A stretch of DNA of 32,000 bases from Balneolaceae bacterium (GTDB taxonomy: Bacteria > Bacteroidota > Rhodothermia > Balneolales > Balneolaceae): positions 3,044,682-3,076,681 of the forward strand of contig OZ252262.1 of the NCBI GenBank assembly GCA_965249965.1. Reading direction: 5' to 3'. The position numbers were made by a program, and so were the translations under genes. The notes below the pieces were generated by a model that was not told the origin of the DNA, made no database searches, and was given only the letters and a program-made list of their open reading frames with translations. Numbering within the stretch: the stretch's first letter is position 1; each line of letters starts with the position of its first letter. Of the stretch, positions 3,001-24,794 are shown in pieces.

Positions 3001-6000
3001 GATGGAACCTCCCCTTCAACTACCACTCGACAGATTGATTTTGAAGTGTATGATTGGGACGATATAAGTAATTCGGTATCTCGAAATATCGAAATAACGC
3101 CATTAAACGCAGCTCCGGTTGTAGCTGCAATTGAAGGTACTACATTAGCATTTACTGAGGACGATGGCCCTACTGCTATAACATCAACTTTAACAGTATC
3201 CGATTCGGATGATGCAAATCTGGTTGGCGCTACAGTAGCATTCACTAACAACTATTTCTTAGGGGAAGATGAACTGGGTTTTACTACCCAAAATGGAATT
3301 ATTGGCTCATTTGATGCCCCCACGGGTGTATTAAGCTTGAGCGGAACCTCATCAGTTGCGAATTACCAAACAGCACTGAGAAGTGTCACATTTGAAAATG
3401 TCAGCTCAGATCCTGTAACTGGGTTAGATCGTGAAGTTACGTTTCGGGTTTTTGATGGAATAGACAGCAGTGGTGTACAATCTAGAGATGTTTCTGTAAC
3501 AAGTTTAAACACCGCACCCACCCTTGCAGCTATAGAAAGTTCAAGTTTGTTTTATTCTGCTGGTGATACTTCCATCGTTACAAGTTCAATTACATTAGTT
3601 GATCCTGACGATACCAATATTGAAACGGCAACAATACAAATTACATCTGGGTTTGATAGTGCGGAAGATTCCCTTTTATTTGACGATATTTTTGGAATTA
3701 CTGACGGCTGGAATGATACCAATGGTACACTCACCTTAACAGGACCAGCTTCAAAAGCAGATTTCGAATCTGCACTAAGAACCGTCACCTATCTAAATAC
3801 TGCAGGTACACCAACCGACACCCCACGTGATATTACAATCACTGCTAATGACGGCGACGACGATAGCAATACTCAAGTAAGAACAGTTTCTTTTAGTATT
3901 CCAAAATCAGTGTCGGGGCTTCTTGTGTGGCTAAAAGGAGATGCCGGTACTTACACAAATACCGGGTGTACAACCACAGCAACCGACACAGATCCGATTG
4001 GTTGCTGGGAAGATCAAAGTGGTAATGGCCATGATTTTATTTCCACTGGAGCTGCAAATCCAACCTTTGATGCTGTTTCAGGTTCAATTAATTCACAAGC
4101 AGCTATAGAATTTCCCGGCGGTGGATCGAACGTTCGATTAGAAGACGCAGACGCTGAAACCCAATATCTGGATGGATTAGCGGGATTAACGATCTTTTTT
4201 GTAATTGAATCGGATGTAACAGCCACAGATCGTGGTATTTGGGCATCTGAAACTCCCGGAGCATCTACTACAGATCAGTATTTCTCATTAAGATATGACG
4301 CCACAGGGACGAGCGGTGGAGCAAGTAATGTTATTACAGCTGGCTTACGAGATCAATCAGCATTTACGCTAGAAAGTTTTGCCGATGCTCAAACTACTTC
4401 TGGTCAAATCGTGATGTTAAAGTGGACGTCAGAGACTACCTACGAGATGTATATTGATGGAGTATTGAGTAATCCAACTTCAACGACTACCATACCTTCG
4501 GGAACACTCGACGCAGCAAACTTAACAACAGCAATTATCGGCCAAGGTCCACTTGACAACAATACCAGTTGGGACGGACTTATCGCTGAAGTAATTCTTT
4601 ATGATTCGGAAATATCATTAACAAATCAGGAAACTGTAGAAGATTATTTATCCAATAAATACGATATCCCGATTCGATCATTATCCCCTGCTACCGGAGG
4701 TGAAGAAATTTCTGCTGACGATGCAAATGTAACCTATACTACCCTTTCCGGCCCACGTGTACAGGAAAGTTTTGTTGGTGAGTTTTCAACAGGAACCTAT
4801 GTGTTTGAGGTACCAACAGGCTTTGAATGGGATACTGGCGGTGGGGCACCATCTGCTACTGTTTCGCCTGCCTTTGGTGGATCTACCGATTTAGCAATCT
4901 CTTTCACGAGTAGAACATCAACACAAATAACGTTTACTGTAACTGCGGCTTCTACCACAAATCCCGCGGAAATAACATTTTCGGATTTTAGAGTTCGCCC
5001 AACAACCGGGGTTTTGCCGAATTCAGGAAATATTACGAATGTGGGAACAACCGGACTGGGTGGTTCAACAGATTATGGAGAACTTACGATGGTTGCGGGA
5101 ACCCAAATCGCAATGGAGTTTTCTCAACAACCGGGAACTTCAAACGATGGATCAGCCGTATCACCATCTCCACGGGTTCAACTAATTGATCAATATGGAA
5201 ATTCGGTTGAAGAAAGTAGAGTCGACATTACTATGGCACTTAATGTTGTAAGTGGTACCGGGGTATTAAATGGAAGTTCTACTACTTTAGAAGAGACGAA
5301 TCTTTTTGGTTTAGCCGAATTTGATAATTTGGTAGTTGATAATACGGGCACAAATACATTTACGGCATCAAGTACCGGATTAACAGATACAACAAGTAAT
5401 GAATTTGATGTCGTAGTTCTTGGGCAGCTAACAGGATTTACTGTTGAAAGAGTACCATCTGGCAATATTTCAGATAAGTTAGCTGGACAATCATACAATA
5501 TTACCATTGTTGCCGTTGATGGTATTCAGGATACGGTAACCTCATTTACAGGTACGATTTCATTAACGTCAAATTGTACGATTGGAACAGGAGCCGGAAC
5601 TTCTCCATCATTTACAAGTGGTGTATTATCGTCACTTACAGTTAGTATTTCTAATACAGGAACCTGTTCGCTAACTGCTACAAATTCTTCTGGTTCTGAA
5701 GCTGGTACAAGTAATACATTTACTGTAACCCCTGGTGCAGCTTCCGAGCTAACTACCACTATTTCCGCAAGTCCAACCGTTATTTTCAACGATGGTTTTG
5801 CTACATCAACAATAACGGTTCAAACAAAAGATTCGGAAGGCAACAATCTTACAACGGGTGGCGAAACAGTGGGACTAAGCGTTACATCCGGTACGTTAGG
5901 CTCAGTGACAGATAATAGTGATGGCACCTATACCGCAACGCTTACCTCTTCCATTGTAGCTGGTGTTGCTACGGTAACAGGAACACTTAATGCCGTTGCC

Positions 6001-8097
6001 ATTACAGACGACGCGGATGTTGAATACGCTAATTTTAACACGCAATGGCAGTCTCAGGTTGGGTCGGTTTCTGATGCACGAAATTGGGATGATGCTACAA
6101 ATTGGAGCGCAGGTATTGTACCTATATCTACTGATAAAGTACTCATCCCAGCAACTCCTTCTGTTGGTAATGAACAACCTGTTGTGAACACCACAAATAC
6201 TACTATCGCGCAAATCTCATTAGAAAACTCTGCTACAGTTACGGTTTCAGGAGGTCTGAATTTTATAGTTACCGGTGAAGCTTCAGGCGAGGGTGAAATT
6301 TTAGGGTCAAACTCGGATACTTTGACGGTAGGTGGTAATGTTGACTTAGGGGATGCTTCAATTGGTTATGTGATATTGAATGGTTCCAGTAATCAAACAA
6401 TTACCTCGCCAAATACTTTTACTAATCTGGAAATTGATAATACTGGCGGTGCTGATTTTGCTAGCGATGTGATCGTTTCAGATTCACTTAAATTGGTAGA
6501 CGGAACTATGTTTCTGCCAAGTGGTTCAAATTTAATTGCCAATCAGAAATCTTACGGTTCAGGTGATATCAGAATGCAGCGTACGATTACAGGGGATATT
6601 GGTTGGAGATTAATCTCCTCCCCATTCAATACAACATTTGGTGATTTATTGGATGGCACAATTACTCAAGGTTATTCGGGTGCTTTTTATAGTACCGGTT
6701 CAAACCCCGGTGATACACTACAGCCCAATGTTTTGACTTATTTAGAAAGTTACGTGGGCACTGACAATCAACGATATCGGGCTCCTGCAAGTGCCGGAAC
6801 TTCTGTAGTTGAGGGGCAAGGAATGTTTGTATTTGTTTTTGATGATGTTGCCGGCGACTCACGATATTCTGACCCACTTCCAGACACACTTGATACTTCC
6901 GGACAAGAATGGGACGGTGATGGCACAGAAGTAGATTTTGGCATTACCTACACCACTGCCGCAGATTCTGGCTGGAATCTGGTTGGGAATCCTTTCGCTG
7001 CTACCATCGATTGGGATGATTCACCGAATTGGACCAAAACCAATGTGGAATCTACCATATACATTTGGGATCCTGCAGCGAATGGCGGAGATGGAGAATA
7101 TCTGACCTGGAATGGAGTGACTGGTACCTTACCGAATTCAGGGTTAATTGCGCCATTTCAGGGATTTTGGGTAAAAGCAAATGATGCCAGTCCGGTATTG
7201 AAGGTTAAAAAGGATGCGAAAACAACAGCCGGTACCTTCTTGCGAAAAGAGATCGCTGACGACAGTTCAGATAGCTTAAAAGCAAAAACTTCTATTGAAC
7301 CTCAGGAGACTTTAATACCGCAAATACAATTAGCCGTTGTTAGTGATAATGGACGTTCAAAACGAACCAATATAATTTTTACTAAAGAAGGCACTAATGG
7401 TAAGGATGAATTGGATGCGTTTAGATTATTGCCATTATCCAACTCCCATGTAGAGTTTCATTCTTTATTAAACAATGGCACAGAACTGGCAATCAATAAT
7501 CTACCGATAGATTTTAACTCAAGAAATTTCATTCCACTTCATTTTGATGCCTTTGAAGATGGAATTCCGGTATCCGGTTCATTTAAGATGCTTTGGGGAG
7601 ATTTCCGAGGTATTCCTGAGGATTGGATTGTAACCTTAATTGATAATGATACCGGTGAAGAAATCAACATGCTCGAAGAACTCAGTTATGAATTTAATCA
7701 TACCACAAGAGCAAAAATCCAACGAAATTTAAACCCACTTTCACCCAGCCATCAAATTAAAGCTAAAGCACTTACTCTTGATACTAGATTTACATTGAAA
7801 GTATCTACAGAACAAATCGAAAGAGATGTTCCGGAACAGATTTTCTTAAGTCAGAATTATCCTAATCCATTTAATCCATCTACTACCATTGAATTTGGAG
7901 TGAATGAGACATCAAATGTGGTATTGGAAATTTATGATATACTTGGCCGAAAAATCCAAACATTGATCAATGAGCAAAGAAATCCTGGGCGTTACCAAAC
8001 TCGGTTCGATGCCAAAGCTCTGGCGAGTGGGGTTTACTTTTATCGACTACAAGCAAACGGTGAAACATTTATTAAAAAGATGACCTTTATTAAATAG
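28..8097 (+). CDS. Giant (2689 aa) secreted multidomain surface/adhesin-like protein: signal peptide, DUF2341-like domain, three LamG/concanavalin-like modules, five cadherin-like repeats, Ig-like (Big) modules, T9SS C-terminal sorting domain
   Basis: Single 8070-nt ORF. The N-terminus MKASLLKYNWIKSGILLIIFWMSLDIAVAQ looks like a signal peptide. Three segments end in LamG-type motifs (FDEVRISNSTRDSAWIATEY; YIAEFVSWNNAL; LIAEVILYDSEISL). There is an invasin-like Big segment (TISASPTVIFNDGFATSTITVQTKDSEGN...DGTYTATLTS). The C-terminus NYPNPFNPSTTIEF...GVYFYRL is typical of T9SS Por-secretion tails. Confidence 0.85.
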   Translation: MKASLLKYNWIKSGILLIIFWMSLDIAVAQLPGYTQRLKGHVNSSEVFGTSDLSNFPVLLSFTTPRLRHTSSGGDVENINGYDIVFTTDDGSTIMSHQIEEYQPTTGEVVFWVRFPTLSPTTDTEFYLYFGNTSISTDPSSTNVWDSNYKMVLHLNETGAAPLTVSDAAGEGTDGSDNGTISAAGQVGDARNLNGTGDRIIVADNGVSPLDISGSITISFWLNISNLGNGPDILTKGDYLNGYSIWTSAAGALQFQINNDALSTAGGQIANGTWSYLSFTRASNGDRTIYVDGAEVASDNSNESFNIDDEDLYLSTASFWPMTGLFDEVRISNSTRDSAWIATEYSNQNAPGPGSFIDQVNAEPILDSIEVSTITYNSGDSPTIITTDISTYDGDDTNIENATIEITGNYDSSEDVLAFSDQLGITGSWDTINGILTLTGTSSVANYQTALRSITYENTDPAPIENTRTITFTINDGDDDSNTQTRNINVVKVNIAPVLSDIETSSIVYFASSGAKTITNNIQLVDADDIFIDSAFVEITAGYLSTEDTLIFADQNGITGSWDDINGKLTLTGDTLVANYETALRSITYTNSNATPSTTTRTISITANDGTEDGNTVTRDIEFPDSITEIASYKGVGVFHFDAQDADGDGDSGTNQPADGALTTWSDRSDDVSASTTDLSFSANNAAEEALLDDNYLGDRSALLFDGIDDYYERTTDDALLNLNPPFTEKSFAIVFRTSDDITTTQVIYEQGGGTRGYVFGLESGVLYATRFDRNLGGTANDYSSISFSGLTANTTYVLIASHDASSGTDWSANLNGSAITTLTNAPTMNQHTGNASIGDSDGNIRHMNGDDSQITNVPFNGYIAEFVSWNNALNTTDFTNIYGFLSDKWFNTPSVLADIELSAVSFTEGDAATAITSALTVTDADDTNLDSAKVTIAVGFDATEDVLALPAPVGGITGSYDAISGILTLSGTETVANYQTALRSVTYQNTDGTSPSTTTRQIDFEVYDWDDISNSVSRNIEITPLNAAPVVAAIEGTTLAFTEDDGPTAITSTLTVSDSDDANLVGATVAFTNNYFLGEDELGFTTQNGIIGSFDAPTGVLSLSGTSSVANYQTALRSVTFENVSSDPVTGLDREVTFRVFDGIDSSGVQSRDVSVTSLNTAPTLAAIESSSLFYSAGDTSIVTSSITLVDPDDTNIETATIQITSGFDSAEDSLLFDDIFGITDGWNDTNGTLTLTGPASKADFESALRTVTYLNTAGTPTDTPRDITITANDGDDDSNTQVRTVSFSIPKSVSGLLVWLKGDAGTYTNTGCTTTATDTDPIGCWEDQSGNGHDFISTGAANPTFDAVSGSINSQAAIEFPGGGSNVRLEDADAETQYLDGLAGLTIFFVIESDVTATDRGIWASETPGASTTDQYFSLRYDATGTSGGASNVITAGLRDQSAFTLESFADAQTTSGQIVMLKWTSETTYEMYIDGVLSNPTSTTTIPSGTLDAANLTTAIIGQGPLDNNTSWDGLIAEVILYDSEISLTNQETVEDYLSNKYDIPIRSLSPATGGEEISADDANVTYTTLSGPRVQESFVGEFSTGTYVFEVPTGFEWDTGGGAPSATVSPAFGGSTDLAISFTSRTSTQITFTVTAASTTNPAEITFSDFRVRPTTGVLPNSGNITNVGTTGLGGSTDYGELTMVAGTQIAMEFSQQPGTSNDGSAVSPSPRVQLIDQYGNSVEESRVDITMALNVVSGTGVLNGSSTTLEETNLFGLAEFDNLVVDNTGTNTFTASSTGLTDTTSNEFDVVVLGQLTGFTVERVPSGNISDKLAGQSYNITIVAVDGIQDTVTSFTGTISLTSNCTIGTGAGTSPSFTSGVLSSLTVSISNTGTCSLTATNSSGSEAGTSNTFTVTPGAASELTTTISASPTVIFNDGFATSTITVQTKDSEGNNLTTGGETVGLSVTSGTLGSVTDNSDGTYTATLTSSIVAGVATVTGTLNAVAITDDADVEYANFNTQWQSQVGSVSDARNWDDATNWSAGIVPISTDKVLIPATPSVGNEQPVVNTTNTTIAQISLENSATVTVSGGLNFIVTGEASGEGEILGSNSDTLTVGGNVDLGDASIGYVILNGSSNQTITSPNTFTNLEIDNTGGADFASDVIVSDSLKLVDGTMFLPSGSNLIANQKSYGSGDIRMQRTITGDIGWRLISSPFNTTFGDLLDGTITQGYSGAFYSTGSNPGDTLQPNVLTYLESYVGTDNQRYRAPASAGTSVVEGQGMFVFVFDDVAGDSRYSDPLPDTLDTSGQEWDGDGTEVDFGITYTTAADSGWNLVGNPFAATIDWDDSPNWTKTNVESTIYIWDPAANGGDGEYLTWNGVTGTLPNSGLIAPFQGFWVKANDASPVLKVKKDAKTTAGTFLRKEIADDSSDSLKAKTSIEPQETLIPQIQLAVVSDNGRSKRTNIIFTKEGTNGKDELDAFRLLPLSNSHVEFHSLLNNGTELAINNLPIDFNSRNFIPLHFDAFEDGIPVSGSFKMLWGDFRGIPEDWIVTLIDNDTGEEINMLEELSYEFNHTTRAKIQRNLNPLSPSHQIKAKALTLDTRFTLKVSTEQIERDVPEQIFLSQNYPNPFNPSTTIEFGVNETSNVVLEIYDILGRKIQTLINEQRNPGRYQTRFDAKALASGVYFYRLQANGETFIKKMTFIK
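127..435 (+). other. DUF2341-like N-terminal domain of the giant protein
   Basis: YTQRLKG...LSNFPVLL...INGYDIVFTTDDGS...SHQIEEY...GEVVFWVRFPTL...TEFYLYFGN matches my memory of the DUF2341 pattern (nfPvl, G.DirF.d.dg, yeie.w, wVkvp.l, iyYGn). No HMM was run. Confidence 0.5.
1108..1896 (+). repeat. Two tandem in-frame ~130-aa cadherin-like protein repeats (R1 1108-1506, R2 1507-1896)
   Basis: Both units share N-x-A-P-(I/V)L..IE, D.DD.(N/I)(I/F), EIT(G/A).Y.S.ED.L.F.DQ.GITGSWD.ING.LTLTG...VANY(Q/E)TALRSITY.N....P...TRTI....NDG..D.NT.TR.I. The DNA similarity is visible, for example gttgcaaattatcaaaccgcattacgaagtatcacctac at about 1359. Confidence 0.8.
2701..3897 (+). repeat. Three more tandem copies of the same ~130-aa repeat (R3 2701-3105, R4 3106-3507, R5 3508-3897)
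   Basis: Each copy carries ...ED.L......GI.GS(Y/F/W)D...G.L(T/S)L(S/T)G...VANYQTALRSVT(Y/F).N. The fifth copy has diverged (SKADFESALRTVTYLNT). This block is separated from R1-R2 by a LamG-type module. Confidence 0.8.
7840..8094 (+). other. T9SS (Por) C-terminal sorting domain
   Basis: IFLSQNYPNPFNPSTTIEFGV...VVLEIYDILGRKIQTL...GRYQTRFDAKALASGVYFYRLQANGETFIKKMTFIK matches the canonical Por_Secre_tail pattern at the extreme C-terminus. Confidence 0.85.
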
Positions 8098-14029: not shown

Positions 14030-14032
14030 TTA

Positions 14033-14614: not shown

Positions 14615-15128
14615 GCTATTTCTCATCATATTAATACATGTGGTTTCACAAATACATTTGCATTCACAGTTTATCAATTTACAAATAAGAGTTGAACCAG
14701 AATTATCAGCAACAGTTGAACAAGATCTAAATTTTGGGCAATTAGTAATTAATTCTGGAATAACAGAAATAAGACTTGGCGACGTGAATATGGGTATTTT
14801 TAATATTCGTGCCTATTACACGCAAAATATTTATGTGAGCCTCGATTTTCCTACTGCATTGATTCATGATAATCCTGCCATTAAAGATGTTATCCCAATG
14901 GATTTAGACGTTGCATATAACAATACAGGTAGTAGAAGTGTGTTTAATTCAACTGAATTAGAGGGTAATGAAGGTTTCCTACCTGTGACAGAAAACGTAT
15001 TAGTTACCCAACGAAACCAAGAGATATGGCAAGAATTACTACTATTTGTATACGGCTCAATTGATGTAGGAAATGTTAATGAAGGTCTGTATTCAGGTGA
15101 AATCCTACTATTTGTAGACTATGATTAA
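14607..15128 (+). CDS. DUF4402-like secreted subunit (173 aa)
   Basis: Overlaps the previous ORF by 8 nt. It has a hydrophobic N-terminus, an LNFGQ motif and C-terminal EGLYSGEILLFVDYD. Confidence 0.45.
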   Translation: MIRLFLIILIHVVSQIHLHSQFINLQIRVEPELSATVEQDLNFGQLVINSGITEIRLGDVNMGIFNIRAYYTQNIYVSLDFPTALIHDNPAIKDVIPMDLDVAYNNTGSRSVFNSTELEGNEGFLPVTENVLVTQRNQEIWQELLLFVYGSIDVGNVNEGLYSGEILLFVDYD

Positions 15129-15134
15129 TTACTT

Positions 15135-15168
15135 AAAAACTCTTAGACAATTTTAATTAAGAGTTTTT
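15135..15168 (+). terminator. AT-rich perfect 11-bp inverted repeat; weak intrinsic-terminator/attenuator candidate
   Basis: aaaaactctta (15135-15145) pairs perfectly with taagagttttt (15158-15168) around a 12-nt loop, 7 nt after the stop at 15128. Only two G:C pairs are present. Confidence 0.35.
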
Positions 15169-15238
15169 AACTAGGATTGAAAAAGAGATATAAATAATTT
15201 TATACCAGAATTTAAAAGCCAAACTAAACTTTAGAATC

Positions 15239-15790
15239 ATGAAATCACTAAAAAATATCCTTTCTGCTTTTGCATTAGTTGCATTATTAACTACTGCCAC
15301 TTTCGCTCAGGAAAATACTGACGTTAATATTGGAGCAGTTGTTCTTGCAGATATTACTTTAACAAAAAATGCTGATGTAAGCTTCGGTAACATCCAGGAT
15401 ACTGGTAGCCCTGTACTTGACCCTCAAGGAACTAACACTGCAGCAGTTGGTGCAGGTGCTACTTTTGGTAAATTGACAATTGGCGCTGCTAACACAACTC
15501 AGCTTCTAATTGATTGGGATCAAACAACTGTTACGTTAAGTGATGGAACTAACAGCATGACTTTTACTCCAGATATTTCTGCTAACAGTACAGATGATAT
15601 TGCTACTTCTTCTGATGTGACTAAGAACACTGCAAATGCTGCTACTGAAACTTCTGCAGGTGGTGCACTTTTTGTTTATATCGGTGGAGATCTTGGAACA
15701 CTTTCAAGTCAAGCAGCTGGTACTTACACTTCTGATAGTGGAACTGCTGGCGCATCTGGTGATCTTAACATCACAGTTAATTATCAATAA
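15239..15790 (+). CDS. DUF4402-family protein (183 aa), candidate major fibre subunit
   Basis: Signal peptide MKSLKNILSAFALVALLTTATFAQ, followed by Thr/Ala/Gly/Ser-rich low-complexity sequence. The VSFGN motif and C-terminal AAGTYTSD...LNITVNYQ closely match DUF4402 proteins as I remember them (ending ...G.Y......tVnYn). The gene has its own AT-rich 110-nt upstream region and a strong downstream terminator. Confidence 0.65.
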   Translation: MKSLKNILSAFALVALLTTATFAQENTDVNIGAVVLADITLTKNADVSFGNIQDTGSPVLDPQGTNTAAVGAGATFGKLTIGAANTTQLLIDWDQTTVTLSDGTNSMTFTPDISANSTDDIATSSDVTKNTANAATETSAGGALFVYIGGDLGTLSSQAAGTYTSDSGTAGASGDLNITVNYQ

Positions 15791-15811
15791 GAGATAATTA
15801 AAGAATATAAA

Positions 15812-15840
15812 AGTCTCACTCTTCGTGAGACTTTTTTTTT
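15812..15840 (+). terminator. Rho-independent terminator after the candidate major subunit gene
   Basis: agtctcac (15812-15819) pairs perfectly with gtgagact (15825-15832) around the 5-nt loop tcttc, followed by a T run through 15840. Confidence 0.75.
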
Positions 15841-15914
15841 GCCCTAAATCGATTCTTCGCAAATTGTTATAATATTGCTTAGAACAATTTTGAATTATTT
15901 TAACTAAATTATTC

Positions 15915-16775
15915 TTGATGGCAAATTATATCTACGCGATGAAGTCTACTATAACACTTTCAGTTATTCTTTTAATAATATCATCTATCACAATCGCTAA
16001 TGCTCAAGTAACCATTGCACCTACTAATTTATTTATAGAGGAGAATGCAAGATTTGGTACTTACATGGTGATAAATAATTCAAATGATACTCAAGAAATC
16101 TCGATTGATTTCACCTTTGCATACAGCCAAAGTGATGAGCAGGGTTACAGAACAATTGTTCAGAATGAAGATGAGATTAAGGAAGCACACTCGATTGCTG
16201 ACTATGTACGTGCATTTCCAAGGAATTTTACTTTAGCGCCTGGGCAAAGACAAGTAATTCGATTACGTCTTACCCCCCCTAATGACCTCGAAGATGGAAC
16301 ATATTGGGCTAGAATAAAAACTGCCTCAACACCAGAAACCCCACCAATCGAGTTGCAGTCTAATGATGCTGTTGCTGCTCGGGTAGGAATAAGAGTTGAA
16401 CAGGTAACAGGATTATTCTATAAAAAAGGATCGGTTAGTACAGGGATTGAAATTGAGGAAATTAGAACAGAATATGATTCTGAAAGCGAGAATCTAATCG
16501 TGCTGATTGATCACCAAAGAACAGGGAATAGCCCATTTCTTGGCTCTATAATCACGTCAATCATTGACAGTAATGGCCAAGAGGTTCGTAGAGGATTCTT
16601 ATCAACTTCACTATATTTTGATGGAATTTTCAGGCAAGAATTTGAAATTGGAGATCTCCCTAATGGAGAGTATTTAATTCGAGCAACCTTCGAAAGTAAT
16701 AGAAGCGATATCCCAGAATCTGACTTAGTACAGATGCAAAGTGTTACAGAAACCACAACTTTTACGAAGCGTTGA
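15915..16775 (+). CDS. PapD-like periplasmic pilus chaperone (286 aa; the true start may be ATG 15939)
   Basis: Signal peptide MKSTITLSVILLIISSITIANAQ. VTIAPTNLFIEENARFGTYMVINNSNDTQEISIDF and FPRNFTLAPGQRQVIRLRL...LEDGTYWARIKTASTP follow the chaperone N-domain pattern (v.i.P.r......v.N, then PP.f.l.pg..q.vRi...D.E..f.l.v..iP). The size fits two Ig-like domains. Confidence 0.6.
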   Translation: MMANYIYAMKSTITLSVILLIISSITIANAQVTIAPTNLFIEENARFGTYMVINNSNDTQEISIDFTFAYSQSDEQGYRTIVQNEDEIKEAHSIADYVRAFPRNFTLAPGQRQVIRLRLTPPNDLEDGTYWARIKTASTPETPPIELQSNDAVAARVGIRVEQVTGLFYKKGSVSTGIEIEEIRTEYDSESENLIVLIDHQRTGNSPFLGSIITSIIDSNGQEVRRGFLSTSLYFDGIFRQEFEIGDLPNGEYLIRATFESNRSDIPESDLVQMQSVTETTTFTKR

Positions 16776-19757
16776 GAATAATATTAAAACCATTATTCTT
16801 TTTTTTTTTCGCTACTAGTTTCCAGTAGTACGGCTTTTGCTCAAAGCGAAGACGACTTCGAAGTTTATCTTCAATTTACTCATAGAGGTGTAATAAACAA
16901 TTATGTTATTGCTTATTACGATGGAAATGAGTTTTTCTTACCTGTTAAAGAGTTATTTGATCTGCTTCAGATCGAGGCCAATTTAAATGGCGTTGTAATA
17001 GATGGAAGGTTTGCACTCGAACAGACTGATTATTTCATTGACCTAAATAGACAGTCGATAACATATGGAGACAAATCTTATCCATTAACCAGTGACGATT
17101 ACATACTCACTGAATTAGATACATACATCCCTCCTAGATATTTTAGTGAGGTTTTTGGTTTAAATTTTTCGGTAGATTTTAATAACCTCACACTCAGGCT
17201 GGAAACAGAAGTTGAAATACCTATTATTCAACGCTATTTAAGACAGTCAAAACGAAAGCTTGCAGATACCAACAGAGGCGAAGTCTCCTATTACCCTTTA
17301 GAGTTTGGACTAGAACGAAGCTTTTTCGATGGAGGGTTTATGGATTATAGCTTAGCAGCTAACTTAAATAATCAACTAAATACTTTCAGTTATAGTAGCT
17401 CGCTTGGGTTACAACTGCTAGGTGGGGATTTACAAGGTGGGTTATTCGGTAACGTAAATAATGAAACCACCATATTTGAAACCAATAACTTAAGATGGAG
17501 AACCTTATTACGCGATAATAATTGGCTTAAAAGTATAACAATTGGTCAAACTAATACCGATGGTGTATTTATGAACAGCTATACTGGAATAAGATTATCC
17601 AATGAACCAATTGAGCCTAGAAGGTTATTTGATGAATTTGAATTACAAGGAAATACAATTCCCCAATCTGAAATTGAATTATATCTCGACAATGCACTAA
17701 TCGATTTTAGTCAAGCCGATGAATTTGGAAATTATCGGTTTTTGGTACCTCAATACTATGGTACAACTCAATTAGATTTAAGAATTTATGGACCAACCGG
17801 ACAAATAATTCAACAACGATCAAGACAGCAGATTCCATTTAATTTTGTACCAAAAGGAGAATTTAATTATAGATTTAATGCAGGTGTATTAGAGAATTCA
17901 TCTATTGGTGAGACGGATAGAGATAATACAATACAAGGATCTATTTCATATGGGGTTAATCGTTGGTTAAGTTCGAAAGTAGGAATCGAATATTATTCCT
18001 CAATAATTGGTGAGAATAAACCTTTTTATACAGCAACATTATCAAGCCGAATCGCATCTAACTATATATTCTCTGTTGAAGGAGTAACAGAAGGGTACTT
18101 ACGATCGACGTTAAATGCGGTTTATCCAAATTCTGCCAGTATCAATCTGGATGTAACTAATTACTCTTCAAAGGAAACAATATTTAATACATCGAATAAT
18201 GATTATCAGGTAATAGGAAGCATATTCCTTCCAATAACTATAAAAAATCAATTATTCAGCGTAAGGGTTTCAAATTTTTCGAGAGTAAGACAAGGGTTAA
18301 CTTTAAATACTATTAGAACCGATCTGAGCGCGAAGGTTAATCGTATTAATATGAGATTGGGGTATTCAGATAGATTAGTCGATTCTTTTGATATTTTAAA
18401 AGGTTCAGGTTCAGGGATTTTAGAATCTGCACTAACATACAACTTCACAAGAAACCCAAATATTCCAAAATTTATCAGAGGCACTTTTTTACGTAGTCAA
18501 CTTAGATTTGTCCCATCAACAAACTCATTTCAGCAAGGTGAGATACTGGTATCCAGAAGTTTGTTCAATAAAGGTAGAATACAAGCTTCTCTTGGTAGAA
18601 ACTTTCAAGGAAAGTTTAATACGTTTAGAATCAATTTTGTAATTGATTTTGGGGTTATTCGATCGAACACAACTACCACTGTTATCAGAGGTAATGTGAA
18701 TTCTAACCAAACAGTACGCGGTTCAGTTGGTTACGACTCGAACTTCAATAATTTTATTTGGACGAGTAGAAACCAAGTTGGTCGGTCTGGTACAGCTGTT
18801 CGGTTTTTTGTTGACAACAATACAAATGGCACATTCGATTCTGATGCAGATGAACTCCTCGATGATATCAATCTAAGACTTGGAAGAACCGGCGCATCAA
18901 CGGTATATAAAGATGGAATATTATATTACAGCCAACTAAACTCATATTTCCGCTACAATGTTGAATTGAATCAAACATCCATAAAAAACCCAATGCTGGT
19001 AGCAGATCGTGACAGATTCTCAATTGTTACAGACCCGAATTCGTTCAAGTTACTAGATATTCCTTTCAACATGAGTGGAGTTATGGAAGGAGCCGTAGAA
19101 AGAATTTATGACGATGGATTTACACAAGGTATTGGTGGACTAAAAGTTCTTGTTACATATTTAGATGACAATAATGTAAAAGAACTCCGTACTTTTTCAG
19201 ATGGAAGTTTTTATGATTACCCACTTAAACCGGGGAATTATCGTCTTGAAATTGATCCATCACAATTAACCATATTGCAAGCGAGATCTGAACCTGAGTT
19301 CATAAATTTCGAAGTTAAAACACTACGTGACGGTGATTTTGTTGAAGGATTGAACTTCAAACTTCTACCAAAAATTGACCAGGAACAAACACCTGAAGAC
19401 AGTTTAACTGCGCTAACCATTGCTCAAGTAACCGACGAAATTAAGAGTGAACCAGAAATATTAGAATATTCTCAGGAAATATTTGTAACTATTGATGATG
19501 CACTCAGGTACTTAATTCAGGCTCAAAACGCCTTTTACAGCAAGAATATCGAGCTTGCGTTCCGTTTAGTTCAAGAATCATTAGAACTTTTTGAAACTGC
19601 ACAAGGGCACGCTTTAAAGGGAAGTTTTTACTATTTTGAGGGCAACATCGACCAGGCGCAACGACATTGGGAACAGGCACTCAGATTTAACCCCGATCTC
19701 TACATCCCAGATATGGAGACTCTAGAGGACAAGGTTTCGACGAGTGCATCAGATTAG
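16772..19757 (+). CDS. Usher-like outer-membrane fibre-assembly protein (~995 aa if read through) with a C-terminal CarboxypepD_reg-like plus TPR-like extension; reading frame interrupted at the T11 tract
   Basis: The frame of ORF 17340-19757 is open back to 16788 and encodes ...FFSLLVSSSTAFAQSEDDFEV (a signal-peptide end), but it has no ATG/GTG/TTG before 17340. TTG 16772 overlaps the chaperone stop (TTGA) and encodes MRIILKPLFFFFF in the adjacent frame, which stops at 16826. Usher-like motifs include the N-domain FFLPVKELFDLLQIE...IPPRYFSEVFGLNFSVDFNNLTLRLE and the plug-like IELYLDNALIDFSQADEFGNYRFLVPQYYGTTQLDLRIYGPTGQIIQQ. The C-terminal part has LKVLVTY...RTFSDGSFYDYPLKPGNYRLEI followed by TPR-like helices. 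Confidence 0.6.
16799..16809 (+). repeat. T11 homopolymer inside the usher signal-peptide coding region
   Basis: Counted directly as t at 16799-16809, flanked by c at 16798 and c at 16810. Confidence 0.95.
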
Positions 19758-21606
19758 GATGTATAATATAGGTAACATATTCAACCACCGACTTCTCAAT
19801 TTGGCTTCTAAAAAAAGCCACCGACTCCCTACCCCCTCTATTTTTTTATTAGTTTTTGTTAATATTCTAATTGTTAACCCTGTTTTTGCTCAAACTGCTA
19901 TTGATCCTGGTAATACGCAGTCGTTAGAATTAAGAGTTGCAAATCTCGAACAGCAGTACGATTCCCAAATAATCCAGATACTTGCTAATTACTTCGATCG
20001 AAAGAAATTTTTTATTGATGTAAATTTAGAAGCAGAATTAATTGATGAAACAGTTGGAACTTCCCAAAACCAAGTGGTTTCTTCATCACAACCACGGCAG
20101 AATTTATTTATGCCGGGTCTGCCTTTCTTACCTGAAGAAAACGTTCGCCAACAACCATCTTTAACACTAGAGCCTGATGTAATAGTCAATCAAAATACTA
20201 TCAAAACACTCCGTTTGGTTAGTATGAACGTTAACATATATGCTGATACTTCACTTACGGCTGAACAACTCGAACTAATGCGGTTTATAACAGGTATAGC
20301 TGTTAAAGTTAATCCCAATCGAGGAGATCAGATTGTCATTTCTCAAATAGCAATTCCTGATTATACCGAACGACCAGAGCCGATAACTGCAACAACAATT
20401 TCACCTCAACCAACTACAAGTCCGGATTTCAATTCAATCTATACCTACGTTCCTGCATTCGCTTTAATGCTTTTATTTGGTCTCACCTTATTGTTCAACC
20501 GCCTGATGAACAAGCCACAACCACAAATACCCATTAGGGAATTTAGAGAAGCATTTAAGCAAGATTATGCTACTAACAGAGAATTAGCCCGTACAGAGTT
20601 AGAAATCGAAGATCCTGAGCCAATGGAATCACCCGAAATAGTTGTAACGAAAGATGAAATTGTGGAAGCTTTCTTCACTAAACCTGATGAAGTATCCACC
20701 ATTTTCAGATATTGGTTAAGTGACGAAGAAATCGGTGCTGAAAAAGCAGCTGAAGTAATTGTTGCTACCGATAAACATTTACTTCGTACGATTAAACGAG
20801 AATTACACCCAGAGGATTACGAAACGCTTACCGACGCAGTAATCGATTTACCAGAATTAAGCCCAGAAAAGCGTAAAGAAATCCTAACCCAGTTTGGAAA
20901 AATGCTTCAACAGGGTGCGAAGAATACGATATCTGAAGGAAAAAGAAATAAGTTTTCACTCTTCAAATTTCTAGATCATATTTCTGACCAACATATTTTA
21001 ACGCTTCTGGAAACAGAAGACAGTCTATCGGGTGCATTTATACTGCAATATCTACCTGAAGAACATGCAGCAGAATTCATTGAGAAGTTAGACAAAGAAA
21101 TTGCTGCTAAAATTATGTTGCATATGGCAACATTAAACAATCTTACGAACGATCAACAACAAAGAATTTCTTCTGAATTATTTGATAAGGCCATGGATTT
21201 GGTTGAAGCAGAACGTAGCGAGCAGTATGGAGCAGAGCACCTGTACCCTATTCTAGAACGCTTGCCAGTTCACGAACAGAAACGTTATATCGATGAATTA
21301 AAAGCGACCGGATCTATTGTTGGAGCCATATTAGAGAAACAATTTATTACCATCGAGAAATTGCCTGAATTAAGCGATGAAATTATTAAAAGAGCAGTTC
21401 GTACTTTAAATACTGAAACCTTGTTGGATGCTATCGTTGGCCTGGACGCTCATATTGTAGATAAAATTTTATCTGCTCGCCCTAAACGTGAACAACGTCT
21501 GCTTAGAATGGAACTTGACGAATTACAAGGCGCAAGTAATTTGCAAACCGAATATGCAAAAGCCATTCTTATGAATTCAATTAGAAAGAATGCGAATGAC
21601 GGCTAA
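19744..21606 (+). CDS. Membrane protein reading as a FliF-like ring-building domain fused to a complete FliG-like (N/M/C) rotor protein (620 aa from GTG 19744; 615 aa from ATG 19759)
   Basis: It has an N-terminal hydrophobic segment (IFLLVFVNILIVNPVFAQ), a periplasmic segment, a TM helix (IYTYVPAFALMLLFGLTLLF), and then a cytoplasmic FliG-like sequence. See the two domain features below. The start is 1 nt after, or 14 nt overlapping, the usher stop. Confidence 0.65.
   Translation: MHQIRMYNIGNIFNHRLLNLASKKSHRLPTPSIFLLVFVNILIVNPVFAQTAIDPGNTQSLELRVANLEQQYDSQIIQILANYFDRKKFFIDVNLEAELIDETVGTSQNQVVSSSQPRQNLFMPGLPFLPEENVRQQPSLTLEPDVIVNQNTIKTLRLVSMNVNIYADTSLTAEQLELMRFITGIAVKVNPNRGDQIVISQIAIPDYTERPEPITATTISPQPTTSPDFNSIYTYVPAFALMLLFGLTLLFNRLMNKPQPQIPIREFREAFKQDYATNRELARTELEIEDPEPMESPEIVVTKDEIVEAFFTKPDEVSTIFRYWLSDEEIGAEKAAEVIVATDKHLLRTIKRELHPEDYETLTDAVIDLPELSPEKRKEILTQFGKMLQQGAKNTISEGKRNKFSLFKFLDHISDQHILTLLETEDSLSGAFILQYLPEEHAAEFIEKLDKEIAAKIMLHMATLNNLTNDQQQRISSELFDKAMDLVEAERSEQYGAEHLYPILERLPVHEQKRYIDELKATGSIVGAILEKQFITIEKLPELSDEIIKRAVRTLNTETLLDAIVGLDAHIVDKILSARPKREQRLLRMELDELQGASNLQTEYAKAILMNSIRKNANDG
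19945..20361 (+). other. FliF/SctJ-type ring-building-motif (RBM3-like) periplasmic domain
   Basis: LEQQYDSQIIQILANYFDRKKFFIDVNLEAEL resembles FliF lE..i...i..iL.pivG.g.v.v.V.a.ld. IKTLRLVSMNVNIYADTSLTAEQLELMRFITGIAVKVNPNRGDQIVISQIAIP resembles FliF i.RLSVAVvV....lt.eq...i..lv..avGf...RGD.v.V....F. A TM helix follows, as in FliF. Confidence 0.55.
20731..21591 (+). other. FliG-like N, middle and C-terminal domains
   Basis: N domain: IGAEKAAEVIVATDKHLLRTIKRELHPEDYETL...EILTQF (FliG_N has the EKAA motif). Middle domain: LLETEDSLSGAFILQYLPEEHAAEFIEKLDKEIAAKIMLHMATL (compare FliG l..EhPQtiAlil.yL.pe.AA.vl..Lp.e....v..riA.l). C domain: LSDEIIKRAVRTLNTETLLDAIVGLDAHIVDKILSARPKREQRLLRMELDELQG...EYAKAILMNSIRK (compare FliG l.d.di..ll.evd...L..ALkga..el.ekil.nmS.Raae.l.edle..gpv...dve.Aq..il). 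Confidence 0.65.
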
Positions 21607-21623: not shown

Positions 21624-22154
21624 TTGATGAACGTACGGCTTTATACATTAGCACTCATTTTTACATTTTTATTGCTTCATTGTTCATCATCCAGCGAAGT
21701 TGTAGAGCCTGAAGGAGAAACGATTACAGAGTTAAGCGAAGTAGAATTAAAAGCCCAGGCGCAAGCTGATAGCGTAGCTGAAGCCGAAGCCAAGGAAGAA
21801 GAACTTCGAAGCGCACTTATCGAGCTTTATAAAGATGAAATTTATTCCCGATATCAGGCGCAGGCAAATACACTAACTAACTATTACATCTTAGCCCAGC
21901 AACATTTTTATTCTGGCGATTTTGAAAATGCCTTATTCTTAATCAATAGAGCTGCATTGATTAAAGAAAATGCTGATGTACTTGCTTTACGAGGCAGTAT
22001 ATATTTGGGCCTTGGTTATATCAATGAATTTGTAAATCAGTGGCGGAGAGCGCTTGAAATGGACCCCGAAGTTCCTCTACCTTCTTCTGCATATATCATT
22101 CAGCAATTGCAAAATAACGGACTAATCGACGAAAACTTAAAAAAGGCTTTTTAA
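21624..22154 (+). CDS. Lipoprotein with C-terminal TPR-like module (176 aa)
   Basis: It has a lipobox-type signal (TFLLLHC followed by SSSS), an acidic/Ala-rich helical segment (AQAQADSVAEAEAKEEE) and a TPR-like C-terminus that is homologous to the usher C-terminal extension. Confidence 0.6.
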   Translation: MMNVRLYTLALIFTFLLLHCSSSSEVVEPEGETITELSEVELKAQAQADSVAEAEAKEEELRSALIELYKDEIYSRYQAQANTLTNYYILAQQHFYSGDFENALFLINRAALIKENADVLALRGSIYLGLGYINEFVNQWRRALEMDPEVPLPSSAYIIQQLQNNGLIDENLKKAF

Positions 22155-22159: not shown

Positions 22160-22957
22160 ATGCGGACATCCATTCTTAACATTTTATGCTTTCTGATTTC
22201 TCTAGTTGTATTGGTGTGGGGTGCTTTGCTTGTTACTGGATTTACACAATACGACTTAATTCCCAGTAGATTTTCGTTTTTAAATCTTCCAAGCCTGGCA
22301 ATCGTTTTTGGCGGGATCACAGCGAGCGTTTTTATTAGTTATCCATTTAACAGTGTCTTAAAAGCGTTATTGGAAAGCACCAAACTATTTTCTTATAGCA
22401 CGATTACTCCCGATTTATTAGAACAGGATGTGCAAAGAATTATGGATTGGCAAAAAATGATAAAACAAGACCGATTCTCTGCTATTTCTCAGCTAAGTGA
22501 AGATTACTCCAATCAATTTGAAGGGTATTTGTTTTCCGTGTTAGACACCAACTATTCAACCGAAGATTTACGTGAACTTGGAGAAATTAATATCGAAGAA
22601 AATTATACCCGCCAGCAGCTTGTAAATCAGATAATATCGAGCATGGGAAAAACATCACCTGTATTTGGCATGCTTGGCACGCTCTTTGGGTTGATTGTAA
22701 TTCTATCTGGTTTTAGTGAGGTAGAATCTCTACTTACAGGTTTGGGTGCTGCACTTATGACCACTCTTTATGGGATTTTGATTGGTAATTTCGTCTTTAC
22801 GCCCATGGCCAAGAAAATGAATAATGTTGCTTCGATGCGCTATTTTCGTGAAAAATTGATTTTAGAAGGGATCATACTAATCGAAGAGAATAAGTCTGCC
22901 TTACAGGTATACGACCGATTACAGGCGCATATGCGAAGAAATAAGAACATGATTTAA
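22160..22957 (+). CDS. MotA/TolQ/ExbB-family proton-channel protein, MotA-like (265 aa)
   Basis: Two N-terminal TM helices are followed by a ~100-aa charged cytoplasmic loop, and then the conserved C-terminal TM pair SPVFGMLGTLFGLIVIL...LGAALMTTLYGILIGNFVFTPMAKKM. This is the MotA_ExbB family signature. Confidence 0.8.
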   Translation: MRTSILNILCFLISLVVLVWGALLVTGFTQYDLIPSRFSFLNLPSLAIVFGGITASVFISYPFNSVLKALLESTKLFSYSTITPDLLEQDVQRIMDWQKMIKQDRFSAISQLSEDYSNQFEGYLFSVLDTNYSTEDLRELGEINIEENYTRQQLVNQIISSMGKTSPVFGMLGTLFGLIVILSGFSEVESLLTGLGAALMTTLYGILIGNFVFTPMAKKMNNVASMRYFREKLILEGIILIEENKSALQVYDRLQAHMRRNKNMI

Positions 22958-22967: not shown

Positions 22968-24794
22968 GTGAAGAAGAAGAAAAACATAATTCTAACACGT
23001 TCGCTCTTTCCATTACAAGAATTTGAGGAAGATGATGAAAATAGCTGGCAAGTTAGCTATTTAGACATCATTACCATTGTACTGGGTTTTCTGATCATAT
23101 TACTTTCTGTTTCACAGATAACTAAATCTGAGTTTACCTCGCTTTCTTCGATTTTTGGTAAACTAGCAGATGAATCTGAGTTCATAACAACACCAATTGG
23201 CAATATTCAAGATGAACTGGTTGAAATGCTTGAACCGGAAATTACAGCCGGAAATCTTGAAATTATTCGTGATTTAAATGATTTACGTATTCGTTTCAAA
23301 AGTGATGATTTATATAATTCCGGAGAAGCAAAATTACAACCAAGTGCAGAATACCTTTTAGATAGAGTTCTAATTGCAATGCAAATGACAAGCTACAACG
23401 ATTTTAATATCGATGTGGAAGGTCATACCGATAATACTCCAATTGCTTCAATTCAATATCCTTCGAATTGGGAATTGTCCACAGCAAGAGCTGCAAATGT
23501 TGTTAAGTACTTCAATGACTTAGGAATTCCTGCAAAGCGTCTAAAAGCGTCTGGTTATGCAGACTCGCGTCCAGTAATTGAATATGATTCGCTAGGCTTT
23601 CCTTTTGCAGCTAACAAAGAAAAGAACCGAAGAGTTGTACTTCGGTTATACTATTCTACTGATAATTTGATAGAAGAACGCCGAGAAGATGCTATCGTTG
23701 AGGATGTATTAACTTCAGAATCATTGGAAGGCTCAATTCCTGAAATCACAACTATAGATCCGCCAGAAAGTGATGAAAATGTACTTGTTCTAGCTGATCA
23801 ACCGGCCATGGTAACTTTACTTGAAAGAAACCGAATTGAAGAAGCAAGGCGAGAAGAACAAAATCGCCAACAACAGGAAACCAATGAACTAATTGCAGAA
23901 GTTGAACAAAAAAATATCCCAAATAACCAAGAACTTATACCTGAGCCTGAACCTGTAAATGAAATACCAGAACCTGTAGTATCTACCCCACCTGCTTCAA
24001 CTCCAGCGATAGCTTCTATGAATTTGCCTTCAACATTGAGAGTTGATGCACGATGTCAGTTTTCAGTACAAATTGGAGAGTTTGAAGCATTACAAACTGC
24101 GTTTCAGCAGGCTGCCCGAGTTGAATCAGCCTTATCTTCCTCTGTGATTTTAACTTACAATAACAATGAATATTCTGTACGGACAGAACCAATTTCTTCT
24201 TTTAGAGATGCCCGGACTGAACAAAATAGAGTTGCTGAGCAATTAAATAATACTGACGTTACACTCTTACATCAGTGCTACAACAATACATTCAATCGTC
24301 CCAAGCCGGTTAGGTACTTAATACAATTTGGAGCTTATCAGAGCAGATCGAATGCCATTGATTATACCATTGAGTTAATGAATCAGTTTGGAGTTCAGGC
24401 GTATATGAATCGTGTTTCTGACACTTATAATGTATTAACCGGACCATATACCTCAAGAAGCGAAGTTCTGTCTCGCCTTCAAGCTTTTAGGTCGCAAAAT
24501 ATTTCTTCAAACTTGTTTATTCGTCATCAACCGGAAACTGTTTTTAATTACAAATATGCTTATCAAATTGAGATAGACACATTTTCGGACAGGATTTCAG
24601 CTGAAAATCTCGCAAATCAGGTACAAACCACTAGCAATATCACCACACGAGTTGAAGAATTAAATGCAGGAATTTTTTCTGTATTAACGGGACAATCAAA
24701 CAGTTTTGATGAGACGCAACGAGCTTTCAACAGGCTTAGAACATCCGGTATAGCAGAAAATCCGGTAATATTTATCCTTGAATCTTCATTATAA
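22968..24794 (+). CDS. MotB-like stator/peptidoglycan-anchoring protein: MotB TM helix with conserved Asp, OmpA-like domain, Pro/Glu-rich linker, three SPOR repeats (608 aa, GTG start)
   Basis: WQVSYLDIITIVLGFLIILL matches MotB W.v.YaDfmT...; the Asp codon gac is at 23064-23066. OmpA-like motifs are IDVEGHTDNTPI...NWELSTARAANVVKYF...RLKASGYADSRPV...NRRVVL. A linker (EPEPVNEIPEPVVSTPPASTP) precedes the SPOR repeats. Confidence 0.8.
   Translation: MKKKKNIILTRSLFPLQEFEEDDENSWQVSYLDIITIVLGFLIILLSVSQITKSEFTSLSSIFGKLADESEFITTPIGNIQDELVEMLEPEITAGNLEIIRDLNDLRIRFKSDDLYNSGEAKLQPSAEYLLDRVLIAMQMTSYNDFNIDVEGHTDNTPIASIQYPSNWELSTARAANVVKYFNDLGIPAKRLKASGYADSRPVIEYDSLGFPFAANKEKNRRVVLRLYYSTDNLIEERREDAIVEDVLTSESLEGSIPEITTIDPPESDENVLVLADQPAMVTLLERNRIEEARREEQNRQQQETNELIAEVEQKNIPNNQELIPEPEPVNEIPEPVVSTPPASTPAIASMNLPSTLRVDARCQFSVQIGEFEALQTAFQQAARVESALSSSVILTYNNNEYSVRTEPISSFRDARTEQNRVAEQLNNTDVTLLHQCYNNTFNRPKPVRYLIQFGAYQSRSNAIDYTIELMNQFGVQAYMNRVSDTYNVLTGPYTSRSEVLSRLQAFRSQNISSNLFIRHQPETVFNYKYAYQIEIDTFSDRISAENLANQVQTTSNITTRVEELNAGIFSVLTGQSNSFDETQRAFNRLRTSGIAENPVIFILESSL
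24054..24755 (+). other. Three SPOR-like (septal/denuded-glycan-binding type) repeats at the MotB-like C-terminus
   Basis: Repeat 1 is CQFSVQIGEFEALQTAFQQAARVE...YSVRTEPISSFRDAR. Repeat 2 is YLIQFGAYQSRSNAIDYTIELMNQFGVQAYMNRVSDTYNVLTGPYTSRSEVLSRLQAF. Repeat 3 is YQIEIDTFSDRISAENLANQV...FSVLTGQSNSFDETQRAFNRL. All follow the SPOR pattern (y.vQvGaf....A......l...g......g.yrV..Gpf.s...A). Confidence 0.6.

Follow-up and report, generated by a model that had tools for sequence, protein, structure and literature searches.

We analyzed a 32,000-nucleotide stretch of DNA from a Balneolaceae bacterium (assembly GCA_965249965.1, contig OZ252262.1, positions 3,044,682 to 3,076,681 of the forward strand; hereafter the window), in which a single gene encodes a periplasmic domain resembling ring-building motif (RBM) 3 of the flagellar protein FliF, a transmembrane (TM) helix, and a cytoplasmic region homologous to the rotor protein FliG. 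A preliminary description, made from the sequence alone, had proposed that this gene is a natural FliF-FliG fusion lying outside any flagellar gene cluster.

The fusion gene and the motA-motB pair downstream

The fusion gene is followed by genes for a tetratricopeptide repeat (TPR) lipoprotein, MotA, and MotB. The features of this block, with the evidence for each in parentheses, are:

19744..21606, + strand: FliF(RBM3)-TM-FliG fusion gene (open reading frame [ORF], homologue starts, Pfam, phmmer, hydropathy)
19744..19893, + strand: N-terminal hydrophobic segment, ending VFA-Q (hydropathy; 'AQ' conserved among homologues)
19924..20349, + strand: periplasmic FliF RBM3/beta-collar-like domain, residues 61–202 (AlphaFold2 model, Foldseek, PF08345)
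20107..20133, + strand: invariant (M/L)PGLPFLP motif in a disordered loop at the hairpin tip (77-member alignment)
20449..20505, + strand: TM helix, residues 236–254 (hydropathy)
20734..21603, + strand: complete FliG-like region with N, M, and C domains, residues 331–620 (Pfam, phmmer, NCBIfam)
21472..21525, + strand: torque-helix equivalent SARPKREQRLLRMELDEL (alignment to Salmonella FliG)
21624..22154, + strand: TPR lipoprotein of 176 amino acids (aa), TPR176 (Pfam; paralogous to the usher tail)
22160..22957, + strand: flagellar-type MotA, 265 aa, 4 TM helices and a cytoplasmic loop of ~100 aa (Pfam, NCBIfam, PDB, hydropathy)
22968..24794, + strand: MotB homologue, 608 aa, with an Asp-containing TM helix, plug, OmpA-like domain, long linker, and C-terminal SPOR domain (Pfam, NCBIfam, alignment)

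The fusion ORF encodes 620 aa from a GTG at 19744 and 615 aa from an ATG at 19759, and the ATG is likely the real start because most homologues and the gene callers begin there. The start of the gene overlaps the stop codon of the upstream usher gene (19755–19757), the ATG lying one base past this stop, and the fusion gene is translationally coupled to the chaperone-usher pilus cluster described below. Hydropathy analysis bore out the topology proposed for the product: two hydrophobic segments (residues ~32–50 and ~236–254) enclose ~190 periplasmic residues, and ~365 cytoplasmic residues follow the second one. The first segment is closed by a conserved 'FAQ', and the same A-Q junction occurs in every secreted protein encoded near the fusion gene; Bacteroidota prefer Gln directly after the signal-peptide cleavage site. 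Because of this conserved FA-Q and the shared junction, the segment more likely serves as a signal peptide that is cleaved off than as a first TM helix that stays in the protein. The product combines in one polypeptide a periplasmic domain of the FliF RBM3/collar type, one TM helix, and a full cytoplasmic FliG, and the natural fusion announced in the preliminary description is real and conserved as one gene.

In Pfam searches the fusion protein matched FliG_N (E = 5.5e-11), FliG_M (3.8e-10), and FliG_C (8.7e-11), all above the gathering thresholds, and phmmer against the PDB aligned its residues 334–614 with residues 9–313 of Salmonella FliG (E = 1.6e-9), every significant match being a FliG chain. 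These searches agree with the FliG N, M, and C motifs initially read from the cytoplasmic part. An MgtE-type protein was considered as well: MgtE_N matched with 27.5 bits, just above its threshold, in a region overlapping FliG_M, but FliG_C with its torque helix is present, and Pfam detected neither CBS nor MgtE channel domains in the protein, so that this candidate was rejected. Against the fliG equivalog TIGR00207 (NCBIfam) the protein scored 63.1 bits, the cut-off being 226.7, and by sequence it is homologous to FliG without being orthologous to the flagellar switch protein. It lacks the EHPQR motif through which FliM binds; EHPQ (125–128) aligns with LDKE (449–452), which varies across the family. 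With this motif missing and neither FliM nor FliN encoded in the vicinity, a switch complex would not be expected for the fusion protein.

The torque helix is the best preserved part of the cytoplasmic region. In the alignment, R582 and E590 are the equivalents of R281 and D289 (Salmonella/E. coli FliG numbering) and are invariant among 31 homologues, as are R579, E583, Q584, L586, and R588 in the same helix. The family adds charges of its own (R579, E583, R585, and R588), conservation in the cytoplasmic part of the family peaks at the 15-mer 574–588, over the torque helix, and R-x-x-R-E-x-x-L is retained in most aligned relatives at only ~20% identity. In one closely related assembly (L053, ~11716–11720), 1 nucleotide is missing just before the torque helix relative to window positions 21474–21480 (GCTCGC to GC-CGC). 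The deletion truncates the called protein and the DNA that follows is almost identical, with one substitution; an error of the assembly is probable, or else a mutation that arose very recently.

The periplasmic region was modeled with AlphaFold2 (residues 48–236, with 21 homologues). The model has a mean predicted local distance difference test score (pLDDT) of 67, with structured blocks at 84–89, and consists of a helix, a 16-residue strand, a 46-residue low-confidence loop, an 18-residue strand, a helix, and a strand, which is the alpha-beta-beta-alpha-beta topology of a ring-building motif with an extended hairpin. The 2 sequence strings that had been read as the first and last strands of such a motif coincide with the predicted helix-strand (residues 61–104) and strand-helix-strand (residues 151–202). 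Foldseek searches of the PDB with this model supported the RBM fold: the top 18 matches were all Salmonella or Vibrio FliF RBM3/S-ring structures (E = 2e-6 to 4e-5, probability 1.00), followed by organic hydroperoxide resistance proteins (E ~2e-3) and then a needle-complex chain (E = 3.7e-3). Across the family, PF08345, Pfam's model for the periplasmic region of FliF, matched 49 of 77 representatives (best E = 7.1e-8), alongside FliG_C in 75 and FliG_M in 69 of them. Flagellar FliF forms an MS-ring of ~33–34 subunits in which RBM1 and RBM2 cradle the export gate; both are absent from the fusion protein, whose ~190-aa periplasmic region holds a single alpha-beta-beta-alpha-beta unit. At the tip of the hairpin, P124, G125, and P127 hardly vary among the 77 aligned members, and the 15-mer carrying this LPGLP motif is the most conserved one family-wide. 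We propose this loop as a candidate output or docking site. In some distant members, listed as P0137, P0178, P0216, P0229, P0135, P0138, and P0152, a LysM domain precedes the RBM3-like domain, and several family proteins of ~250–385 aa consist of LysM and RBM3 only, which may be fragments or stand-alone forms.

The TPR176 gene starts 17 bases past the fusion gene, and motA begins 0.55 kb downstream of the fusion gene, motA and motB lying two genes downstream. MotA matched Pfam MotA_ExbB (E = 4.5e-16) and, over its full length, the NCBIfam MotA/PomA/MotP models (~1e-29). Its matches in the PDB were Clostridium sporogenes MotA (1e-22), PomA (2e-17), and then Bacillus subtilis and Campylobacter jejuni MotA (to 3e-10), with no ExbB or TolQ at E ≤ 1e-3. 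MotA is better conserved (63–90% identity across Balneolales) than any other protein of the cluster, and its loop carries conserved W-Q-K and FEGY.F motifs. In MotB, D33 within 'SYLDIIT' aligns with the channel Asp of C. sporogenes MotB, and MotB_plug (4e-7), OmpA (8.8e-15), and SPOR (9.5e-17) domains were recognized, the OmpA-like domain being of the peptidoglycan-binding kind. The extension of ~370 residues (about 240–608) that ends in SPOR is unusual; in the distant loci with a called MotB, the protein has 220–237 aa and lacks it. MotA and MotB are thus predicted to be a dedicated flagellar-type stator. The proposal that the fusion protein could form a minimal MS-ring-like rotor is strengthened because this stator is encoded in the same operon-like block.

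Chaperone-usher-like genes upstream and their ties to the fusion gene

Upstream of the fusion gene lie genes resembling those of a chaperone-usher pilus, preceded at some distance by a very large surface protein gene:

13538-14029, 14033-14614, 14607-15128, and 15239-15790, + strand: four DUF4402 pilin-like genes (Pfam)
15809..15835, + strand: terminator-like hairpin with an 11-bp stem and T run, after the fourth DUF4402 gene (hairpin scan)
15915..16775, + strand: periplasmic PapD-fold chaperone-like protein, 286 aa (AlphaFold2 model, Foldseek)
16772..19757, + strand: usher-like outer-membrane protein with a CarboxypepD_reg-like and TPR C-terminal tail (Pfam of relatives)
28..8097, + strand: giant cell-surface protein, 2689 aa, with DUF2341, Laminin_G_3, Invasin_D3, and a type IX secretion system (T9SS) C-terminal sorting domain (Pfam)

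Each DUF4402 protein has a signal peptide and a common C-terminal G.Y.G...V.Y motif; none had a PDB relative by sequence, and the SCPU model matched 2 of 24 at E = 0.53. From the hairpin (15835) to the end of motB there is no other strong hairpin on the + strand, two minimal 5-bp matches aside. In fimbrial operons, attenuators follow the genes of major subunits, and because the hairpin resembles such elements its position suggests that 15239-15790 may encode the major subunit. The chaperone-like protein (model pLDDT 80) matched CfaA, Caf1M, EcpB, CsuC, FaeE, FimC, and PapD in Foldseek (E = 1e-7 to 1e-5), and its homologues are publicly annotated as 'fimbrial biogenesis chaperone'. The usher-like protein has ~990–1000 aa in relatives; PF00577 (Usher) matched 4 of 22 relatives (best E = 6e-8), with a faint match in L047, and most relatives have CarboxypepD_reg-like and TPR matches at the C-terminus. 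Sequence searches of the PDB with the usher, chaperone, and DUF4402 proteins returned nothing besides TPR.

In the window, the TTG start and signal-peptide n-region (MRIILKPLFFFF) of the usher gene are one base out of frame with the remainder of the gene, owing to a run of 11 T (16799–16809). Because an independent short contig from another run (L054, 9060–9110) has the identical 11 T, a homopolymer sequencing error is weakened as the cause; in another locus (L003, 7033–7100) the tract is interrupted (9 T, A, 2 T) and in frame. The tract is possibly a phase-variation or transcriptional-slippage switch and not a random error.

Several observations tie the putative motor genes to the usher. The C-terminal TPR tail of the usher and TPR176 are paralogous (35% identity, E = 9e-11), and in 3 family proteins (P0182, P0137, and P0156) TPR176, including its lipobox-like segment, is fused in frame to the C-terminus of the rotor-like protein. 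The TPR module thus occurs in three forms, as usher tail, as free lipoprotein, and fused to the rotor-like protein. TPR domains bind extended peptides, and for this reason the LPGLP loop may be a candidate TPR ligand. Comparison of the window with L053, a near-identical strain, revealed a mosaic: the usher tail, fusion protein, TPR176, and MotA are ~99% identical, MotB 95%, and the upstream small genes 96–100%, whereas the DUF4402 genes, chaperone, and usher barrel in between (window 13502–19177, L053 3745–9419) share only 32–63% identity. The downstream breakpoint, at 19177, leaves the CarboxypepD_reg-like/TPR usher tail with the motor block. Such a cassette swap is typical of diversifying surface fibres. 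The first triplet of small genes upstream (8198–10430) is absent from L053. In Balneola vulgaris DSM 17893 (L055 10834–14343, AQXH01000002.1), one in-frame deletion joins usher residue ~703 to MotB residue ~342, removing the usher tail, fusion gene, TPR gene, MotA, and MotB N-terminus together and leaving the SPOR-containing part of MotB in place.

Distribution of the cluster and flagellar genes

The locus scan, which used one genome per species, yielded 45 loci, nearly all from Balneolales (Balneolaceae metagenome-assembled genomes [MAGs], Balneola, Gracilimonas, and Aliifodinibius). Pilins, chaperone, usher, fusion protein, TPR protein, MotA, and MotB were each found in 42–44 of them, the gene order was identical in the loci inspected, and the absences that were seen concern loci that are short or cut off. 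Exhaustive searching with a profile of the periplasmic domain extended the family to 137 clusters at 50% identity, most members having 580–750 aa and one distant cluster containing proteins from Bacteroidia/Bacteroidota MAGs. A further profile search, aimed at the taxonomy of distant members, again returned Balneolaceae only. The cluster order is repeated in five distant metagenomic loci (L046 and L048–L051), in which small genes, a ~280-aa gene, and a ~970–1145-aa gene precede the fusion gene, (the TPR gene), MotA, and MotB. A two-component system adjoins three of the distant loci (L046, L048, and L049).

Pfam and NCBIfam scans of the main set of window ORFs (≥100 aa) detected no fliM/N, flh, flg, or fliC gene, as had been stated. 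The description of the fusion as lying outside any flagellar gene cluster therefore holds as far as rod, hook, export, and switch genes are concerned, whereas it fails for the stator genes motA and motB. The cluster is carried by Gracilimonas tropica DSM 19535 (L036), a species described as non-motile (PMC4642740) and counted among the Balneolaceae type strains without KEGG flagellar assembly genes (PMC9909488). It is carried too by an Aliifodinibius MAG (L027), and for Aliifodinibius species a near-complete, separate list of flagellar genes is reported (PMC9909488). The literature on B. vulgaris is discrepant: the species is described as flagellated and motile (PMC5167729), yet KEGG flagellar assembly genes are reported missing from it (PMC9909488). 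We considered the fusion machine as an explanation of these 'flagella' and rejected it, since neither the fusion gene nor the TPR gene nor motA is left in the B. vulgaris locus, and motB there has lost its N-terminal part.

A candidate rotary module and competing explanations

We lean, with confidence only a little above even, towards the interpretation that the product of the fusion gene is the rotor subunit in a rotary module that runs on ions, is not flagellar, and is coupled to a pilus usher. The module is best read as a rotor-stator pair that is switchless and free of a type III secretion system (T3SS), for which we infer rotation and a motor output. In this mechanism, RBM3 would oligomerize the fusion protein into an MS-ring-like ring in which each subunit presents a FliG_C torque helix, and wall-anchored MotA5B2 units would turn the ring at the expense of an ion gradient, the conserved R582 and E590 contacting MotA. 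Because EHPQR, FliM, and FliN are absent, there would be no switch and the ring would turn in one direction only; because there is neither RBM1/2 nor an export-gate gene in the cluster, nothing would be secreted through it. The LPGLP loop, at the tip of the collar, and the TPR module would carry torque or force out on the periplasmic face, to reach the usher through the paralogous TPR on its C-terminal tail. The motor might rotate, crank, or actively extrude the DUF4402 fibre, or move the usher complex, so that fibre rotation, winching, powered extrusion, and usher movement are all conceivable outputs. A wider claim is decidedly more tentative: the cluster may represent an unrecognized class of rotary nanomachine in which a FliF-RBM3/FliG ring and MotAB drive a chaperone-usher fibre or usher with no T3SS, rod, or hook, the rotor-stator core being self-sufficient and transferable.

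A number of results weigh against this interpretation. The assignment of RBM3 comes from a model of medium confidence (pLDDT 67, TM-score 0.4–0.54); PF08345 reached only E = 0.13 on the fusion protein of the window itself, and the periplasmic-domain profile found no FliF in the PDB by sequence, so that the fold match and the family-wide Pfam scan are the two sources of the link to FliF. The torque segment, initially described as densely charged, keeps the equivalents of R281 and D289 but not those of K264, D288, and R297, which are replaced by the uncharged V565, M589, and S598. There is no clear R90/E98 pair in the MotA loop, which aligns only with gaps. At least 5 of the 77 aligned family representatives have an N-terminal LysM domain; it is absent from the window protein, and free rotation would be hindered if the LysM of these relatives binds peptidoglycan. 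The window usher-like protein has no PF00577 match of its own, and Por_Secre_tail (T9SS sorting) matched 13 of 21 chaperone homologues (best E = 1e-5). Rotor and pilus genes also part company: in one locus (L052) the fusion gene, TPR gene, and MotAB lie beside a PorZ-like gene and pilus genes are missing, whereas Balneolales ANBcel1 keeps the pilus genes with a truncated fusion gene and no adjacent MotAB. This last strain and B. vulgaris indicate that the motor is dispensable for retention of the pilus genes.

The same parts could work without continuous rotation. The fusion protein would then be a force transducer tethered to the wall or the usher, in the manner of TonB or TolA, with MotA5B2 pushing on FliG_C while the RBM3/TPR side gates or unplugs the usher or drives subunit translocation. 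The LysM of some family members and the SPOR domain of MotB point to contact of both partners with peptidoglycan, plug domains occur in ushers and other 5:2 motors energize outer-membrane gates (PMC12204202), and the two-component regulators beside L046, L048, and L049 fit as well. We nevertheless regard this explanation as unlikely, since the FliF domain retained is precisely the one that builds the large S-ring/collar, FliG and MotA are known to work only as ring plus stator, and LysM occurs in a minority of the family and not in the window protein. Still less probable, in our judgment, is that the rotor-stator pair serves type IX secretion or gliding by moving or loading the giant T9SS adhesin, by analogy with SprB/GldLM, the usher-like, chaperone-like, and DUF4402 proteins being parts of a surface apparatus and not of a classical pilus. 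The giant sorting-domain protein conserved upstream would suit this, as would the sorting-domain proteins that flank L047, L049, and L051, the PorZ-like gene beside the pilus-less L052, and the sorting-domain matches in 13 of 21 chaperone-like proteins. Yet it is with the usher gene that the fusion gene is physically coupled, the motor is connected with the usher tail both by the paralogous TPR modules and by the recombination block, the fold and family evidence favours a chaperone and an usher (best E = 6e-8), and no gliding is reported for Balneolaceae (PMC5167729).

Two further explanations concern whether the gene is functional or real. A decaying, functionless remnant of an ancestral flagellar system could be expected where gradual loss of flagellar genes has been proposed for Balneolaceae (PMC9909488), and the deletion of the module in B. 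vulgaris and of 1 nucleotide before the torque helix in one assembly would agree with decay. We consider this highly improbable given the strong purifying selection (ratio of non-synonymous to synonymous substitution rates, dN/dS, ~0.05 for the fusion gene and ~0.03 for MotA), the invariant functional motifs, the fixed new architecture and gene order in >50 loci, some only ~20% identical, and the dedicated stator and new partner set, which are not expected of a relic. That the ORF is an assembly or gene-calling chimera of two genes is refuted because the ORF recurs undivided: it is found in 45 loci from genomes that include isolates and complete, closed chromosomes, and the family comprises 137 clusters at 50% identity.

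Compared with the flagellar rotor-stator, the module shares the RBM3/collar fold, a TM helix followed by FliG N-M-C in the order in which the FliF C-terminus binds FliG, the R281/D289 equivalents, a flagellar-type MotA, and a MotB with channel Asp, plug, and OmpA domain. It differs in that the fusion is natural, lacks RBM1, RBM2, and EHPQR, and falls below the fliG equivalog cut-off; in that the window and related loci contain no export-gate, rod, hook, filament, FliM, or FliN genes; and in that the module stands among pilus genes and occurs in bacteria for which an absence of flagellar genes has been reported. Rings reportedly assemble from FliF-FliG fusions engineered in Salmonella and Vibrio. 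A natural fusion is already known from the non-flagellated Chlamydiaceae (Bergeron 2016, PMC4768692), where a protein of ~330 aa contains RBM2, one RBM-like unit, and a FliG_M-like region only, with no SpoIIIAG-like (RBM3) domain, and has been discussed in connection with the injectisome (PMC4768692). Both proteins join a shortened FliF to FliG-like sequence, but their domain content differs, the Balneolaceae protein combining RBM3 alone with a complete FliG, torque helix included, and having a MotAB of its own.

With chaperone-usher pili (Csu, CFA/I, Caf1, and type 1) the cluster has in common a PapD-fold chaperone, usher matches in relatives, small secreted subunits, a hairpin after the fourth pilin-like gene, and cassette-like allelic replacement of the fibre genes. 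In contrast, the usher here has an extra N-terminal domain, a CarboxypepD_reg-like and TPR tail, and a rotor-stator linkage, and the subunits are DUF4402 proteins with no solved relative by sequence. To our knowledge, classical chaperone-usher assembly needs no inner-membrane energy source, and torque generation by FliG and MotA has been seen only inside flagella. As in ExbBD-TonB, TolQR-TolA, GldLM, AglRQS, ZorAB, and SiiAB, genes of an inner-membrane ion motor stand beside an outer-membrane or cell-surface apparatus; those 5:2 motors have A subunits of the ExbB/TolQ or GldL type and no FliG/FliF, whereas here a flagellar-type A subunit is paired with a FliG partner. A survey of MotAB relatives places flagellar stators in a flagellum-associated clade, and its text does not mention Bacteroidota or Rhodothermota (PMC12505986). 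Full-text literature searches found no description of the fusion family or of the cluster. We regard the module as a variant of the flagellar rotor-stator; should it really be coupled to a chaperone-usher fibre, the assembly as a whole would be a machine of a new kind.

If the interpretation as a rotary module is correct, the core of the motor can be separated from the secretion system and put to another use, which bears on the origin of the flagellar motor and the question of whether rotor and stator can exist without a T3SS. Under the wider, more tentative claim, the module would either have branched off from the flagellum or be related to its pre-T3SS ancestor. The cluster would be the first of the chaperone-usher type to have an energy source in the inner membrane. 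The module would also give structural and single-molecule studies a natural rotor that is minimal, has no switch, and consists of one polypeptide. Cultured carriers of the cluster are G. tropica DSM 19535 and Balneola sp. EhC07, and B. vulgaris is a natural deletion of the motor.

The remaining observations concern the surroundings of the cluster. The Por_Secre_tail matches of the chaperone homologues sit in the C-terminal beta-sandwich, and both a shared fold and real T9SS targeting are possible. The giant surface protein (28–8097) is a neighbour kept upstream in many loci, and any link of it to the motor would be conjectural. Between it and the DUF4402 genes, window positions 8198–13446 encode two paralogous triplets (166/204/367 aa and 151/194/497 aa) and a 126-aa secreted protein. 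All of these proteins have a hydrophobic, pilin-like or PilX_N-like N-terminus and belong to no Pfam family apart from DUF4900 in the 497-aa one; because they are present in only ~25 of 45 loci, we place them outside the core of the cluster. On the other side, the - strand (24855–30977) carries genes for the E2, E1-beta, and E1-alpha subunits of a 2-oxoacid (pyruvate-type) dehydrogenase and for alanyl-tRNA synthetase. These housekeeping genes are syntenic in 37 of 45 loci and mark the end of the cluster.

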